The notes below the pieces were generated by a model, which was given only the letters and a program-made list of their open reading frames with translations, searched no databases and was not told where the DNA came from. Shown one piece after another: positions 2,995 to 63,841 of a DNA stretch of 63,841 nt (position 1 is the first letter of the stretch; every line of letters begins with the position of its first letter). The translations under genes and the position numbers were made by a program. Source of the stretch: Candidatus Shapirobacteria bacterium (GTDB lineage: Bacteria; Patescibacteriota; Microgenomatia; UBA12405; JAUWLS01); contig JAUWLS010000003.1 in NCBI GenBank assembly GCA_030613565.1, positions 1-63,841 on the forward strand, written 5' to 3'.

Positions 2995-3678
2995 TTATTT
3001 CCCTTGACCAGACCTCTCTCTACGCACCATCATGAGTTCTTCGTAAGGTGGAACATACCTCCATGGACCAATTCTAGCCATTACTGCATGCTTATCCATC
3101 CTTAATCCAGCTATCACTTCAATTTTGCCCCCCAACCATTCTTCTAATCTTTTCACCCTTCTTCCAAAAAACTTCTCATTTGCTCTCTCAACTAACCATC
3201 TTAAAATCTGAGGTTCATTTATTTCTCTCCTATATATATCTCCCCACTTTTTCTTACCATCAATCAACTCACAAAGTTCGCTTGTCAAAAATGGTCTTGC
3301 CAACACCACCTTTGAATCCCCTTCCACTTCCCACCCTTCGGGTGACAACCCACTCCCACAATACTCTGCCTCATAAACCAACCCCAAAGTCGACAGGCCA
3401 TCACCATCTTTTGAAAAAACCGGAACTACGTGTGGTCGACATTTGGCCTCGACATACGGAAGACACACATCGCCTCTCTTTATGGCCGTTTCCTCAAGAA
3501 GTTCATCCAAAACCATCCTCATTGGAACTTGGTTTTCAGTCCCGCCAGCCGGCAATCCCCAACCCAATTCTTCCTCTGTACTTGGATCCCTGTTACACAC
3601 CAAAACTAAACGATCACCTCCAGCTGTTAATAATAATCCAACGGAAACATTGGTTAAAACTCTACCCTCACTTCTCAT
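2995..3678 (-). CDS. Divergent Nudix hydrolase
   Basis: WGLPAGGTE...DELLEETAI Nudix-box-like motif; TATAAT 5 nt before the ATG. Confidence 0.6.
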   Translation of the reverse strand: MRSEGRVLTNVSVGLLLTAGGDRLVLVCNRDPSTEEELGWGLPAGGTENQVPMRMVLDELLEETAIKRGDVCLPYVEAKCRPHVVPVFSKDGDGLSTLGLVYEAEYCGSGLSPEGWEVEGDSKVVLARPFLTSELCELIDGKKKWGDIYRREINEPQILRWLVERANEKFFGRRVKRLEEWLGGKIEVIAGLRMDKHAVMARIGPWRYVPPYEELMMVRRERSGQGK

Positions 3679-3699
3679 CTCTGATTATATAACATCCCC
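3645..3699. repeat. Direct repeat A1: promoter and first codons of the Nudix gene (intact copy)
   Basis: 44/55 nt identical to 4442-4496 by manual alignment, including an identical 18-nt core ATCTCTGATTATATAACA. Confidence 0.8.
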
Positions 3700-3707
3700 T
3701 TCACTGT

Positions 3708-3766
3708 TGAATTCTAAATCGAATCCGAACACTTGATAGCTAACAACTCTGATTCCAACATCTCTT
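3708..3766. repeat. 59-bp dispersed element, copy 1
   Basis: 53/59 identical to 62827-62885; first 28 nt TGAATTCTAAATCGAATCCGAACACTTG identical. Confidence 0.9.
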
Positions 3767-3778
3767 TAGTATTAATAC

Positions 3779-3807
3779 TTGACTTAACCAAGTATTACTC
3801 ATATAAA
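3779..3807 (+). promoter_or_regulatory. Sigma70-type promoter of the AbrB/PIN module
   Basis: TTGACT-N17-TATAAA, 11 nt before ATG 3819. Confidence 0.6.
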
Positions 3808-3818
3808 CTATTCTTACC

Positions 3819-4061
3819 ATGTTGCAAAGCACCACCCTTACTCAAAAAGGTCAAATTACTATCCCCCTCTTTCTGCGCCAAAGACTTAAACTAAAAACTG
3901 GACAACAAATGGTTTTTCTCCCCCATCCTGAACAACCCGGTATTTTAATCCTAAAACCCATAACAGACCTCATCTCCCTCAAAGGAAAATTTAAAAGCCA
4001 CAAAAAATACAACAAAACACGAGCCAGAGCAACTTTTACAAAAGACATTTCTAAAATATGA
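3819..4061 (+). CDS. AbrB/MazE/SpoVT-family antitoxin
   Basis: TTLTQKGQITIPLFLRQRLKLKTG swapped-hairpin motif; ATGA overlap with the PIN gene. Confidence 0.85.
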   Translation: MLQSTTLTQKGQITIPLFLRQRLKLKTGQQMVFLPHPEQPGILILKPITDLISLKGKFKSHKKYNKTRARATFTKDISKI

Positions 4062-61276: not shown

Positions 61277-62311
61277 ATGTTTATTCCCAAATACACTATC
61301 ACTCACTCACTCCTGGCCAATATTACCAAAATTAACTCTCTAGTAAACAAACTAAATAACCAGCGTTTTGCTAACCTTATTTTGCTTGAATTTGAAAAAA
61401 CTGCCCGAGAAGTTTCAGCCTACACATCAACCAACATTGAAGGCAATCCCCTTTCTTTAACCCAAGTAAAAAAAATACTAAAATCTAAACCAACTAACAT
61501 TAAAGATACCCAAAAAGAAATAATAAACTACAATCAAGCTTTAAAAACACTCAATAAACTCCTAAAAAACAAAAACCCCAAACTATCTCTGAAAATAATT
61601 CTTGATATTCATCGACAGATAACACAGGGCTTGTTGCCAGATCACGATTCCGGTTCATTACGGAAAAGACCTGTGATAGTTAATGATCCCCAAACAGCTA
61701 AAACTGTATACCTCCCCCCCGATATCAAAAAAGTAAACACTTTAACCACTGATTTAATAGATTTCATTAACAAAAACAGTACCAAGGTTAACCCCTTAAT
61801 CTTGGCAGGAATTTTTCATAAACAAATGCTAATTATCCATCCTTTCATGAATGGTAATGGTCGAACAACAAGACTAATAACTAAAATGCTGCTTGCAAAA
61901 ATGGGACTAAATACATTCAACTTATTCAGTTTTGAAAACTACTATAACCAAAATATAACTAAATACTTCCAAACAGTTGGAGAATATGGAGACTACAACG
62001 ATTTAGTTGATAAGATTAATTTTACAAACTGGCTCGAATACTTTACTCAAGGAATAATTGACGAATTATTACGAGTAACAAACATCTTACCCAAAACCGG
62101 AAACTCACCTAAAACCAAACTTGAATCCCATCACTTAAAAATCTTAAAACATATAAAAAAGAATGGTTTTATTACTCAACGTGATTACTCAAAACTAACC
62201 AACCGAACAAAACCAACACGTGTCTTAGACTTTTTAAAACTAATTGACCTTCAATTAATCCAGCGCAAAGGAAAAGGACGATCCACCCACTATATTTTGT
62301 CAGAAAAATAA
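61277..62311 (+). CDS. Fic-domain protein with C-terminal winged HTH
   Basis: STNIEGN; IHPFMNGNGRTTR; C-terminal ITQRDY...TRVLDFLKL..L.LI.RKGKGRSTHY. Confidence 0.92.
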   Translation: MFIPKYTITHSLLANITKINSLVNKLNNQRFANLILLEFEKTAREVSAYTSTNIEGNPLSLTQVKKILKSKPTNIKDTQKEIINYNQALKTLNKLLKNKNPKLSLKIILDIHRQITQGLLPDHDSGSLRKRPVIVNDPQTAKTVYLPPDIKKVNTLTTDLIDFINKNSTKVNPLILAGIFHKQMLIIHPFMNGNGRTTRLITKMLLAKMGLNTFNLFSFENYYNQNITKYFQTVGEYGDYNDLVDKINFTNWLEYFTQGIIDELLRVTNILPKTGNSPKTKLESHHLKILKHIKKNGFITQRDYSKLTNRTKPTRVLDFLKLIDLQLIQRKGKGRSTHYILSEK

Positions 62312-62343
62312 AAACCCCAAACTACTCTCTTCTCTCCCTTACC

Positions 62344-62383
62344 TTACTCATACCTCAAAGCGTTCAAAACCGAAATCTTAGTT
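62344..62383. repeat. Direct repeat C1: orphan copy of the ABC permease 3' end
   Basis: 38/40 identical to 62932-62971; minus strand TKISVLNALRYE* versus TKISALNALRYE*. Confidence 0.9.
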
Positions 62384-62718
62384 TAAGATGGAGAAATAAG
62401 GACCCCGTGTTTTTTAATTTCAGATACCAAGGGATCCCATTTGTCAGCAAAATCCCTGGGGTGGTAAGGATGTGGTTCAATGAGACCCTCAATTTTATTT
62501 GCCAACCTCATTAGATTAATTCGCTCCCGCCAATAATTGTTTCCAAAATCTTTGGAAACAACACAAACATCAAGATCTGAATCCCATCTTTCTTTCTTTC
62601 GAGCATAAGATCCAAAAAGTATTAATTTTTCCACCACAATCCCCTGCTCAAGTAGTGCTTGATAATACCTACGAAGCACCACCTTTGGCTTATCAGTTAA
62701 TAAAGATTTTTGAGCCAT
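62383..62718 (-). CDS. Minimal nucleotidyltransferase (MNT) antitoxin
   Basis: LILFGSYAR...WDSDLDVCVVS...IEPHPY. Confidence 0.9.
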   Translation of the reverse strand: MAQKSLLTDKPKVVLRRYYQALLEQGIVVEKLILFGSYARKKERWDSDLDVCVVSKDFGNNYWRERINLMRLANKIEGLIEPHPYHPRDFADKWDPLVSEIKKHGVLISPS

Positions 62719-62826
62719 TTGCTGTATTTTTTAATTTTATTAAAATATTTTGTTGTGAACTGTTTATCCGCTTCTTTATAAAACTCAAGCTTCTTGCTGT
62801 CATATCTGGCAGTTATATTAAAAGGC
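62697..62826 (-). pseudogene. 3' relic of a HEPN-domain gene
   Basis: PFNITARYDSKKLEFYKKADKQFTTKYFNKIKKYSKWLKNLY*, typical of the HEPN C-terminus; no start codon; the 5' end abuts the 59-bp element. Confidence 0.65.
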
Positions 62827-62885
62827 TGAATTCTAAATCGAATCCGAACACTTGGTAACCAATAACTCTGATTTTAACATCTCTT
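62827..62885. repeat. 59-bp dispersed element, copy 2
   Basis: 53/59 identical to 3708-3766. Confidence 0.9.
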
Positions 62886-62931
62886 GAGGGCTGTATAAGT
62901 TCGCAAACGAAATACATTAACTCCCCCTTCT

Positions 62932-63841
62932 TTACTCATACCTCAAAGCATTCAAAGCCGAAATCTTAGTTGCTCGATGTGCCGGATACAGTCCTGTAAA
63001 CAATCCTACTAAAAATGAAGAGAAGACAATAAACACCACAAAGAAAGGTGGTATGTAAGTTAGGTTCAAAAATCCCTGTCCCCCAAACAAAGACAAACCA
63101 GAAATCGCAATCGAAAGGATCTTTCCTATTAAATAGCCCAAAAGTAACCCACTCATTCCTCCCGTCAACCCCATCACCATCGCCTCAGCTAGAAATAAAT
63201 CTTTCACCTCTCCCGATGTCATTCCCATCGCCTTCATTCCTCCAATTTCTCTTGTCCTTTCAAGTAAACTCACCGTCAGTGTGTTAAACATTCCCAAAAT
63301 TGCCACTCCCAAAGCCACCAAACCCAAAGAAGATAAAAGCAATCGCAGGTTACCAAAAATTCCCTCAATCTGCTCCACTGTATCAGCTGTACTTGAAGTC
63401 CTGAATCCTAAAGTCTCCACTTCCTTTCTTGCCCCATCTAACCCATCCTTCTTTTCTAGTACCACTTTAAGTTGAGAATAGTTTGACACTCCCACTTTAC
63501 GTAAATCTGTCAATGGAACGTAAAAATAAGCTTCATCATCGTCCTCTATCACTCCTACTACCTTATACTCCATTTCCTCACTCAATGCTTTCCCTTCAAT
63601 CTCAGGCACCAAACTCTTCACGATAATAAAAGAAACTGTAAATTCTTTCCCTATTGCCTCTGTTGGTATCAAGCTCAAAAGATTAAGCATCCCTGTTGAT
63701 ACTACTGCCTCTCTGTCAGGCTCTCTTTCAAACCCTAAAACTGTTATCTCTTTTTTCTGAGCCGATACTGAAGAACTAAGCTCCACCCACTCCACTCCCG
63801 AAGAATCAGTCGACACCACTACTGTATCCAGTTCACTCATT
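62932..63841 (-). CDS. MacB/FtsX-family ABC transporter permease (5' part outside the window)
   Basis: GMFNTLTVSLLERTREIGGMKAMG, FLAEA, GLYPAHRATKI. Confidence 0.92.
   Translation of the reverse strand, partial: MSELDTVVVSTDSSGVEWVELSSSVSAQKKEITVLGFEREPDREAVVSTGMLNLLSLIPTEAIGKEFTVSFIIVKSLVPEIEGKALSEEMEYKVVGVIEDDDEAYFYVPLTDLRKVGVSNYSQLKVVLEKKDGLDGARKEVETLGFRTSSTADTVEQIEGIFGNLRLLLSSLGLVALGVAILGMFNTLTVSLLERTREIGGMKAMGMTSGEVKDLFLAEAMVMGLTGGMSGLLLGYLIGKILSIAISGLSLFGGQGFLNLTYIPPFFVVFIVFSSFLVGLFTGLYPAHRATKISALNALRYE

Follow-up and report, generated by a model that had tools for sequence, protein, structure and literature searches.

How do small accessory inserts come to sit between two similar copies of a short stretch of the host's own DNA? 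The question is raised by a contig of Candidatus Shapirobacteria (JAUWLS010000003.1; 63,841 nt, analysed over its whole length and called the window here), in which six inserts, lettered A to F, are bracketed by direct repeats. A first-pass annotation explained them by homology-facilitated illegitimate recombination, in which donor DNA recombines within a resident gene while its other end is joined into the recipient's gene end, so that two allelic copies remain. Our reading differs from this. We consider that each cassette is probably an insertion with long target duplication, made by illegitimate, integrase-free joining of arbitrary-ended DNA at a gene boundary, and we put the probability of this reading at roughly one in two.

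The window is contig C33 of an 858-kb metagenome assembly (G000; 36 contigs, 39% G+C). It is compared with G001, the sole same-genus relative in the comparison (389 reciprocal best hits with G000, median amino-acid identity 74%), with G096, a complete 1-Mb genome of the same order, and with an order-level set of 132 genomes. In what follows, T denotes the duplicated insertion target, and T1 and T2 are its copies to the left and right of the cargo, which gives each cassette the anatomy T-cargo-T.

Six repeat pairs and what they duplicate

All six repeat pairs are genuine and exceed chance expectation by a wide margin (Table 1). Their local-alignment scores range from 21 to 122, compared with maxima of 13–17.5 for shuffled sequences and with 8–13 for inverted controls, and they are present at or near the positions given in the first-pass annotation. 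Pair A comprises 55 nt at 80%, and pair B comprises 130 nt at 97% (124 nt at 98.4% by BLAST), with an identical core of 107 nt. Pair C is a gapped alignment of 74 nt at approximately 70% (77% over the best 44 nt), and pair D is a gapped alignment of approximately 150 nt, including a 46-nt block at 96%. Pair E comprises 51 nt, with 40 nt at 95%, and the repeat of F, which had been described as a promoter repeat, measures 35–38 nt.

An origin in faulty assembly or in chance similarity might be suspected for a metagenome assembly of 36 contigs with 141-nt overlaps at the contig ends, but we regard the probability of this as negligible. Five of the six pairs are imperfect (70–95%), and so are not the product of a collapse or expansion artefact; the 107-nt identical core of B is shorter than both the assembler k-mer and the 141-nt overlaps; and the alignment scores stand well over both sets of controls. 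Contigs assembled independently in Logan from run SRR12623517 also support two of the structures. One matches positions 31662–33210 at 100%, which takes in both cargo junctions of B, and one matches 50838–55236 at 100%, which takes in all of D together with both flanking genes.

The first-pass annotation took the repeats for copies of one gene end. When the alignments are extended, it is instead the whole target junction that is duplicated, and each pair straddles a gene boundary, with the 3' end of the upstream gene, the spacer, and the 5' end of the downstream gene. For C, the unit extends from the last 7 nt of tmk through the spacer into the M16 peptidase gene, of which it includes the first 56 nt. 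For D, it consists of the last ~58 nt of the NYN gene and ~90 nt with a promoter and a small hairpin unit upstream of comEA, and for E, of an 11-nt spacer and the last 40 nt of the permease gene. Every copy is made up of a half that a gene still uses and a half that has been orphaned. Since the median intergenic spacer between conserved neighbouring genes is only 9 nt, a duplication of 35–150 nt at a boundary must contain gene ends. The appearance of gene-end capture is a matter of geometry, and not of the targeting of gene ends as such.

Pfam matches confirm the identities of the cargo genes (AbrB/PIN, radical SAM-SPASM, AbiEi/AbiEii, RHH/PIN, MazE-AbrB/PIN and MNT) and of the neighbouring or resident genes (RuvC, M16, NYN, FtsX permease, ComEA, ComEC, RuvA and RuvB), in agreement with the earlier statement that ComEA/ComEC and RuvABC are encoded here. 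Three earlier labels need revision: the gene called Nudix (2995–3678) has no Pfam match, the PIN gene of A is a full-length frameshifted pseudogene (4058–4418) and not a truncation, and the stretch in E that was read as a HEPN relic is the C-terminal tail and end of an IS30-like transposase gene (IS, insertion sequence).

Table 1. Positions of the cassette features in the window, and of the competence or recombination genes that flank cassettes in the genome.
Feature	Position	Strand	Description
A, T1	3645..3699		gene 2995-3678(-): functional 5' end (34 nt) and upstream region with TATAAT
A, IS30-like end relic	3707..3775	+	8 nt from T1; 90% identical to the relic of cassette E
A, cargo	3819..4418	+	AbrB-type antitoxin 3819-4061; frameshifted full-length PIN toxin pseudogene 4058-4418
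A, T2	4442..4496		orphan, start codon decayed to ATA; 20 nt upstream of MiaB-like gene 4517-5671
B, T1	31572..31701		functional ruvC 5' end (ruvC 31226-31690, -) and 11 nt upstream
B, cargo	31708..32922	+	77-aa open reading frame 31708-31941; radical SAM/SPASM gene 31993-32922
B, cargo right end	33012..33205	-	3' fragment and terminus of IS256-like (Mutator-family) transposase gene
B, T2	33199..33328		orphan ruvC 5' fragment, continuous with native spacer and murB (33347-34408)
C, T1	41725..41798		functional M16 peptidase 5' end (gene 40542-41780, -) and 18 nt; contains abiEii stop codon
C, cargo	41792..43161	-	AbiEii 41792-42568; AbiEi 42568-43161
C, T2	43196..43270		orphan M16 5' end, native spacer and last 7 nt of tmk (43264-43947)
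F, T1	44339..44373		segment with TTGACA -35 element upstream of RHH-PIN
F, cargo	44366..45069	+	RHH (NikA-like) antitoxin gene and PIN toxin gene
F, T2	45103..45140		same promoter segment as F T1, upstream of Phd-PIN pair 45173-45782 (pair absent from G001)
D, T1	52471..52618		comEA upstream region, TTGATT-N17-TATAAT promoter and small hairpin unit; orphan NYN 3' end of ~58 nt
D, cargo	52639..53260	-	PIN 52639-53022; MazE/AbrB antitoxin 53015-53260
D, T2	53581..53731		promoter and hairpin unit as in D T1; functional NYN 3' end (gene 53673-54179, -)
E, T1	62332..62383		orphan FtsX-permease 3' end, 20 nt after Fic gene 61277-62311
E, cargo	62383..62718	-	MNT nucleotidyltransferase gene, cut exactly at the stop codon, without HEPN partner
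E, IS30-like end relic	62825..62901	+	transposase C-terminal codons; outer end towards the MNT gene
E, T2	62921..62971		functional 3' end of FtsX permease gene 62932-63840(-) and 11 nt
comEA	51846..52448		competence/recombination flank, window
ruvC	31226..31690		competence/recombination flank, window
dprA	C4:2969..3634		competence/recombination flank
recG	C10:9182..11215		competence/recombination flank
recA	C34:84667..85749		competence/recombination flank

Two other features of the window are recorded here. ComEC is split over two open reading frames, with the metallo-beta-lactamase part at 49289–50176 and the Competence-domain part at 50642–51892; the two are separated by a 125-aa open reading frame (50258–50635) that has no Pfam match, and in G001 they lie 4 nt apart. 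A 24-nt unit (TCCATC(A/C)CTGA(T/C)TT...) is repeated four times in tandem at 39916–40011, within a gene-poor stretch between 39427 and 40207.

Empty sites, cargo ends and further cases

Empty sites are found in G001 for B, for C and for the leuS-side cassettes. In that genome, a gap of 36 nt separates the divergent genes ruvC and murB, and there is only one ruvC 5' end; tmk is followed by the M16 gene after 3 nt, and a 138-aa gene and leuS, which mark the empty site for the leuS-side RHH-PIN and Phd-PIN cassettes, are also 3 nt apart. None of the cargo genes is found in G001, and T itself is single-copy there for B and C only. The inserts are genuine acquisitions specific to this lineage, with no resident integrase. 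The target genes of A (2995–3678), D (NYN) and E (Fic and FtsX) are themselves absent from G001, and judging from the sequences compared, these three cassettes are nested insertions in DNA that was already variable.

The ruvC 5' end is not a conserved attachment site, since the orphan ruvC fragment occurs in only one of the 132 genomes of the order. Three order-level relatives have ruvC-murB gaps of 0.9–1.2 kb, which are occupied by ordinary co-oriented genes with no repeats. Exact-protein look-up of RuvC or AbiEii gave no near-identical strain, a metagenome scan with LeuS gave a closest match of 57% identity, and a search of genome contigs with AbiEii found no relative; AbiEii is present in 66 of the 132 genomes.

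The cargos of the window measure 0.5–1.5 kb, and the repeats of all cassettes measure 35–151 nt. The cargo ends are arbitrary, and the cargo looks like random fragments of other chromosomes. In B, the right end of the cargo falls in the interior of an IS256-like transposase gene, which is cut exactly at the T2 boundary, and in E the MNT gene is cut at its stop codon, consistent with the ragged ends described in the first-pass annotation. In C, the abiEii stop codon lies inside T1. The joint between the cargo and T2 of B has 2–4 nt of microhomology (TC.G), and is the sole joint at which microhomology was seen. The radical SAM/SPASM cargo gene of B has a nearest public homologue that is 53% identical, and its homologues lie in unrelated contexts. 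The closest of these (JGI Ga0315294_10005071 (L194), 5001–5957) comes after an S5-L30-L15-SecY-Adk cluster and an EMC3-like gene, and before a Cbf5-type pseudouridine synthase gene, which is an archaeal-looking context.

The footprint recurs outside the window. Self-comparison of the genome gives 39 proximal direct repeats versus 10 inverted ones, and when paralogues, tRNA genes and multi-copy families are removed, there are at least five more T-cargo-T cases, for a total of at least 11 in 0.86 Mb. On contig C4, a Phd/RelE-like pair (named from motifs) lies between dprA and a 160-aa gene, which we take to be a histidine phosphatase, with repeats of ~115–121 nt. On C10, a 118-nt duplication of the recG 5' end (11118–11245 / 18429–18556), with a 112-nt identical core and frayed edges, encloses a 7.2-kb glycosyltransferase block, in which the Nudix-like and methyltransferase-like genes are named from motifs only. 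This is the largest cargo with such a footprint in the genome, and it leaves a 56-aa orphan RecG N-terminus. On C34, a DUF3800-like gene (named from sequence) is contained in a cassette adjoining recA, and there is one further case on C13 and a second on C10. A repeat pair on C36 was dropped as a candidate, as it consists of paralogous tRNA-Gly genes.

An automated filter for unique boundary-type repeats that enclose at least one open reading frame was applied uniformly to all sets. It gives nine direct and two inverted cases in G000, five and one in G001, and six and two in G096, and neither direct nor inverted cases in 1.02 Mb of leuS-centred loci from 80 other organisms. The footprint appears to be commoner in the three genomes of the order than in this leuS-centred comparison set, and the densest place seen is the window, with 6 cases in 64 kb.

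The genomes also contain repeats of other kinds. Contig C20 (L202, ~4900–17830) and the start of C7 have at least 11 copies of a ~100-nt intergenic element (...GGTCCTGACTTGGTCCAAGGCGGGGAGCC...TTTTGGTAAAAT), which lies between nearly every gene of an 18-kb variable contig and could be a promoter/leader, an RNA element or a cassette-boundary site. Contig C16 has six copies of a ~190-nt GC-rich, hairpin-rich element between large genes (21440–21660, 23590–23800, 32640–32800, 35105–35345, 36850–36970 and 41360–41520), one of them inverted at the contig end; this may be a structured RNA or a miniature mobile element. In C21:28000–38947 (L200), positions 3700–10630 form a variable array of small genes with a 351-aa rve-type transposase, several families of 30–140 nt direct repeats, and a 52-nt exact match to contig C8, which bears a tyrosine recombinase. 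Perfect or near-perfect inverted repeats of 78–126 nt surround large serine recombinase genes at C6:22976–29248 and C30:3351–9348, and these may be invertible segments. In G096, GIY-YIG-like genes (~80 aa) beside tRNA genes are bracketed by perfect 28-nt direct repeats (L247:14010–14332 and L251:12293–12609).

Origin of the cassettes

If the cassettes are insertions with long target duplication, a DNA fragment whose ends are arbitrary would be joined into the chromosome at a gene boundary without the use of an integrase, and the same event would copy 35–150 nt of the target, with one copy on each side. The generating step could be the fill-in of a widely staggered break before joining, or replication could switch template, first to the foreign strand and then back to a point upstream. 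The two copies would be identical at birth. Later, each would keep the half that serves its neighbour (a coding end, a promoter or a small-RNA unit) and the orphan half would decay neutrally, which would give the series of identities from 98% to 70%. Survivors would be only those insertions that duplicate the junction and so leave both neighbours intact. The gene-end appearance would then be partly selective, because spacers of 9 nt leave a gene's signals within the gene next to it.

A duplicated promoter could in addition drive the cargo, as in A, D and F. In both copies of these three cassettes the promoter parts of T are kept: A conserves 20 of 21 nt, D conserves 44 of 46, and F conserves the -35 element. 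A consensus promoter scan of the B region gives nothing above shuffled sequences; the T of B may carry the murB promoter.

Mismatches between the two copies of T bear on whether these copies are alleles. In seven clean cases, the mismatches fall on codon positions 1, 2 and 3 in the numbers 27, 22 and 35, which is compatible with a uniform spread (p=0.22), whereas G000/G001 orthologues of similar DNA divergence give 18, 10 and 72% (chi-square ~40 for the comparison). The young pairs, B and recG, have identical cores of 107–112 nt. Non-allelic mismatches together with identical cores argue against a donor allele paired with a recipient allele, and for neutral decay of the orphan half. They likewise go against two parts of the first-pass annotation, namely that the copies are allelic (the synonymous bias of real alleles is lacking) and that the duplicated segment is of foreign origin. 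Its view that the range of identities reflects events of different ages stands, with B at 98% and an intact cargo, and A at 80% and a frameshifted toxin gene.

The homology-facilitated model as a whole, in which a donor anchor and an illegitimate joint leave donor and recipient alleles side by side, gains something from the presence of competence and recombination genes, from the illegitimate microhomology joint of B, and from the 5 of ~22 flanking genes that belong to competence or recombination, a post hoc count. We nevertheless judge it highly improbable. Besides the mismatch spectrum and the identical cores, all six cassettes have a target duplication, where this mechanism yields an insertion or deletion and is not known to give a target duplication, and microhomology is confined to one joint. 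At two polarisable sites of the right edge of B, moreover, the ruvC-attached copy is ancestral and the copy at the native murB flank is derived (at the left edge, two sites match neither copy, with G001 as outgroup).

Several observations weigh against an origin by insertion with long target duplication. When the mismatch spectrum of the seven cases is set against the proportions in distant orthologues, these proportions are not rejected (p=0.065). Among 28 insertions specific to G000 between genes that are adjacent in G001, outer-boundary repeats are found in two (B and C), so that long duplication is not the general insertion footprint here. Four further toxin-antitoxin cassettes of the window (BrnT/BrnA, two Phd/ParE, and Phd/PIN) are missing from the corresponding places in G001 and have no bracketing repeats of their own, T2 of F abutting the Phd/PIN pair on the left side of that pair. 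An EamA gene in the window is also absent from G001 at that place and is unbracketed by repeats. Either long duplication is therefore only one of several routes, or the footprints have mostly been erased. The Ku protein of classical end joining is absent from G000. Of the six cassettes, A, B and E contain IS-end relics, and elsewhere the genome has three tyrosine and four serine recombinases as well as IS30-like and IS256-like transposases. In C, with G001 as outgroup, the M16-coding part is chimeric, with 13 sites that match T1 and 7 that match T2. Recurrence of a single T, in F and threefold at one G001 locus (L037), is easier to explain by recombination at T than by repeated random duplication.

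The relics raise the possibility that insertion sequences assisted the process. IS30-like or IS256-like elements could have made long target duplications in the manner of IS1634/IS1549, or could have carried genes by one-ended or composite transposition, and then decayed. The window has no intact integrase or transposase gene and the cassettes have no terminal inverted repeats at the cargo ends, so the earlier statement that such features are missing holds for intact genes; it does not extend to remnants, as IS ends lie at four places, the three of Table 1 and 25733–25760. The latter is a solo IS30-like end with 3 mismatches to the 28-nt end of the C34 copy, and lies directly after gene 24486–25727 and before a Phd/ParE cassette without flanking repeats. 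The relics are 8 nt from T1 in A, abut T2 in B and are 20 nt from T2 in E. Both IS families have intact or near-intact members at other places in the genome. Families whose target duplications are long and variable are also known, and a passage of PMC2853133 cites a Mycoplasma IS with a long target duplication. In B and E, however, the outer IS end points towards the cargo and the truncated interior towards T2, which is the wrong geometry. Relics are absent from C, D, F and the recG, dprA and recA cases, no inverted partner end was found, and at one full IS30-like copy (C34) an informal look at the alignment shows no long flanking duplication. Relics may merely accumulate in dispensable DNA, and we read them as secondary or passenger features; assistance by insertion sequences seems to us decidedly unlikely.

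A tyrosine recombinase acting in trans could also be considered, if the cassettes were integrase-less mobilisable elements with an attP that brings a replacement gene end, as in tRNA islands or phage 21/e14 at icd. The classical att footprint is a duplicated gene end of which one copy is an orphan, and three such recombinase genes are present in the genome, but the PF00589 matches are confined to contigs C5, C8 and C18, and none lies in or beside any cassette. No 8-mer is common to more than two of 13 targets, which is below random expectation, and the absence of a shared att core noted in the first-pass annotation is confirmed. Cargo ends that are arbitrary gene fragments, a ruvC site used in one of 132 genomes, and the need for a separate attP specificity for each cassette also speak against this explanation, which we consider very unlikely. 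Other kinds of common element were sought as well. No SOS-type operator is common to the targets (a tandem TCTTCGG occurs in the recA target only), and no integron-type common boundary element is seen among the window cassettes, with no search aimed at IntI. Reverse transcriptase (PF00078) is absent from G000, which speaks against target-primed reverse transcription.

Campbell-type insertion-duplication, in which circular or permuted DNA with the cargo and one T recombines homologously with the chromosomal T, for instance after natural transformation, would give the same T-cargo-T anatomy. Such a unit could also loop out by T x T recombination and spread. RecA, RuvABC, RecG, DprA, ComEA and ComEC are all encoded in G000, the T arrays in F and in L037 are in keeping with recombination at T, and the pattern of identical cores with mismatches at the edges only (B and recG) fits a crossover that needs identity. 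The chimeric outgroup pattern of C, in which the T2-matching sites cluster near the start codon, is predicted equally well by single-crossover of a T-bearing circle and by in-situ duplication with orphan decay. An excess of such insertions has been reported for competent species (Furuta 2010, PMC2853133). On the other side, the first joint between T and cargo still requires an illegitimate event, the cargo is without replication function, the mismatches are not allele-like, and a T of 35–55 nt (A, E and F) is no longer than the minimum usually needed for efficient RecA recombination. On balance, we regard this route as possible but unlikely.

For insertion with long target duplication, the DNA may well have entered via the competence machinery. 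Five of the ~22 genes that flank cassettes (comEA, dprA, recA, ruvC and recG; Table 1) are competence or recombination genes, where ~0.5 would be expected (Poisson p ~3e-4, for a category chosen post hoc and an estimated class size). This suggests a stronger version, which we hold to be speculative and rather unlikely, in which capture is coupled to competence: the DNA taken up would be inserted, with a long duplication of the target, preferentially at boundaries of genes active during uptake, and the duplicated promoter would subject the captured defence or toxin-antitoxin genes to the same regulation. If this holds, candidate-phyla-radiation bacteria would have in transformation a regular, integrase-free way of acquiring and wiring in accessory genes, and the 25-year-old footprint of long target duplication would also be explained.

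Comparison with known systems

Gene-end integrases, such as those of tRNA islands and of phage 21/e14 at icd, produce a similar picture of one intact and one orphan gene end, and the imperfect identity of the two copies could reflect a copy borne by the element. The cassettes described here differ in that there is no nearby integrase and no conserved core, the cargo ends are ragged, and 5' ends, 3' ends and pure promoter segments are all used; the ruvC site is not reused in 131 related genomes.

Elements of the IS1634/IS1549 type make long, variable target-site duplications, and IS1630 (IS30 family) makes duplications of 19–26 bp. Variable direct duplications of tens to hundreds of bp are shared with the present cases, and IS30-like relics are found in two of the cassettes. 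Here, however, no transposase gene or terminal inverted repeats bound the cargo, the relics in B and E have the wrong geometry, and most cases are without IS traces. Neither the terminal inverted repeats nor the fixed short target duplication of a transposon is seen, since the duplications differ in length (35–151 nt).

Campbell-type integration of non-replicating circles is a laboratory tool in Streptococcus pneumoniae and Bacillus subtilis. Its product is identical in structure, and it depends on RecA and an uptake machinery, both of which are encoded here. It differs in needing a pre-formed circle that bears T, and it is not known to work with homology as short as 35–55 nt.

Homology-facilitated illegitimate recombination of the de Vries and Wackernagel type (as treated in a passage of PMC3240628) resembles the present cases in that foreign DNA is incorporated during uptake without an integrase, and in the microhomology at illegitimate joints. 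It differs in combining one homologous anchor with one illegitimate joint, from which one would not expect a duplicated target, and no donor-derived anchor tract can be detected in these cassettes.

The cassettes are of some general interest, although the finding is descriptive and the organism is uncultured. They document how toxin-antitoxin and defence genes accrete in candidate-phyla-radiation genomes, which have few classical mobile elements. Their gene-end appearance is explicable by extreme gene packing together with selection for insertions that spare both neighbours, and duplicated promoters would offer captured genes an easy route to immediate expression.

The closest known system is insertion with long target duplication, a rare footprint that was reportedly first noted for restriction-modification units by Nobusato et al. 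in 2000 (Gene 259:99). Its mechanism has been tied to the ability of restriction-modification genes to break DNA. The class was described for restriction-modification genes in mostly naturally competent bacteria, with a mechanism given as unknown, and is delimited by an insert of <20 kb, direct repeats of >30 bp that vary in length and sequence, a single copy in the insert-free genome, and the absence of mobility genes (Furuta, Abe & Kobayashi 2010, PMC2853133). On their sequence features, the cassettes belong to this class. All inserts are below 20 kb with direct repeats above 30 bp. G001, the insert-free relative, shows a single copy for B and C, and also for the RHH-PIN/Phd-PIN site taken as one. 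There is no intact mobility gene in the window and each T occurs only twice in the genome, with IS-end relics inside A, B and E. The cargo has toxin-antitoxin, AbiE, radical SAM and MNT genes in place of restriction-modification genes, which were the search criterion of those authors and not a mechanistic requirement.

The likeness to the class lies in small inserts without intact mobility genes, and in repeats that often overlap the 3' end of a neighbour. Among the differences, the cargo here consists of toxin-antitoxin, AbiE, radical-SAM and glycosylation genes, to which breakage by a restriction enzyme as the driver cannot apply. The host belongs to the candidate phyla radiation, the density is very high, with 6 cases in 64 kb and at least 11 cases in 0.86 Mb, and the copies range widely in decay, from 98% to 70%. 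The footprint thus surrounds cargo that does not cut DNA, and many events of differing age can be followed at the level of single junctions in one tiny genome, which points to a host or general recombination process rather than one encoded by the cargo. What is new is the types of cargo, the host group and the unusual density; the footprint class itself is known, and these cassettes are a further example of it, and not a new kind.

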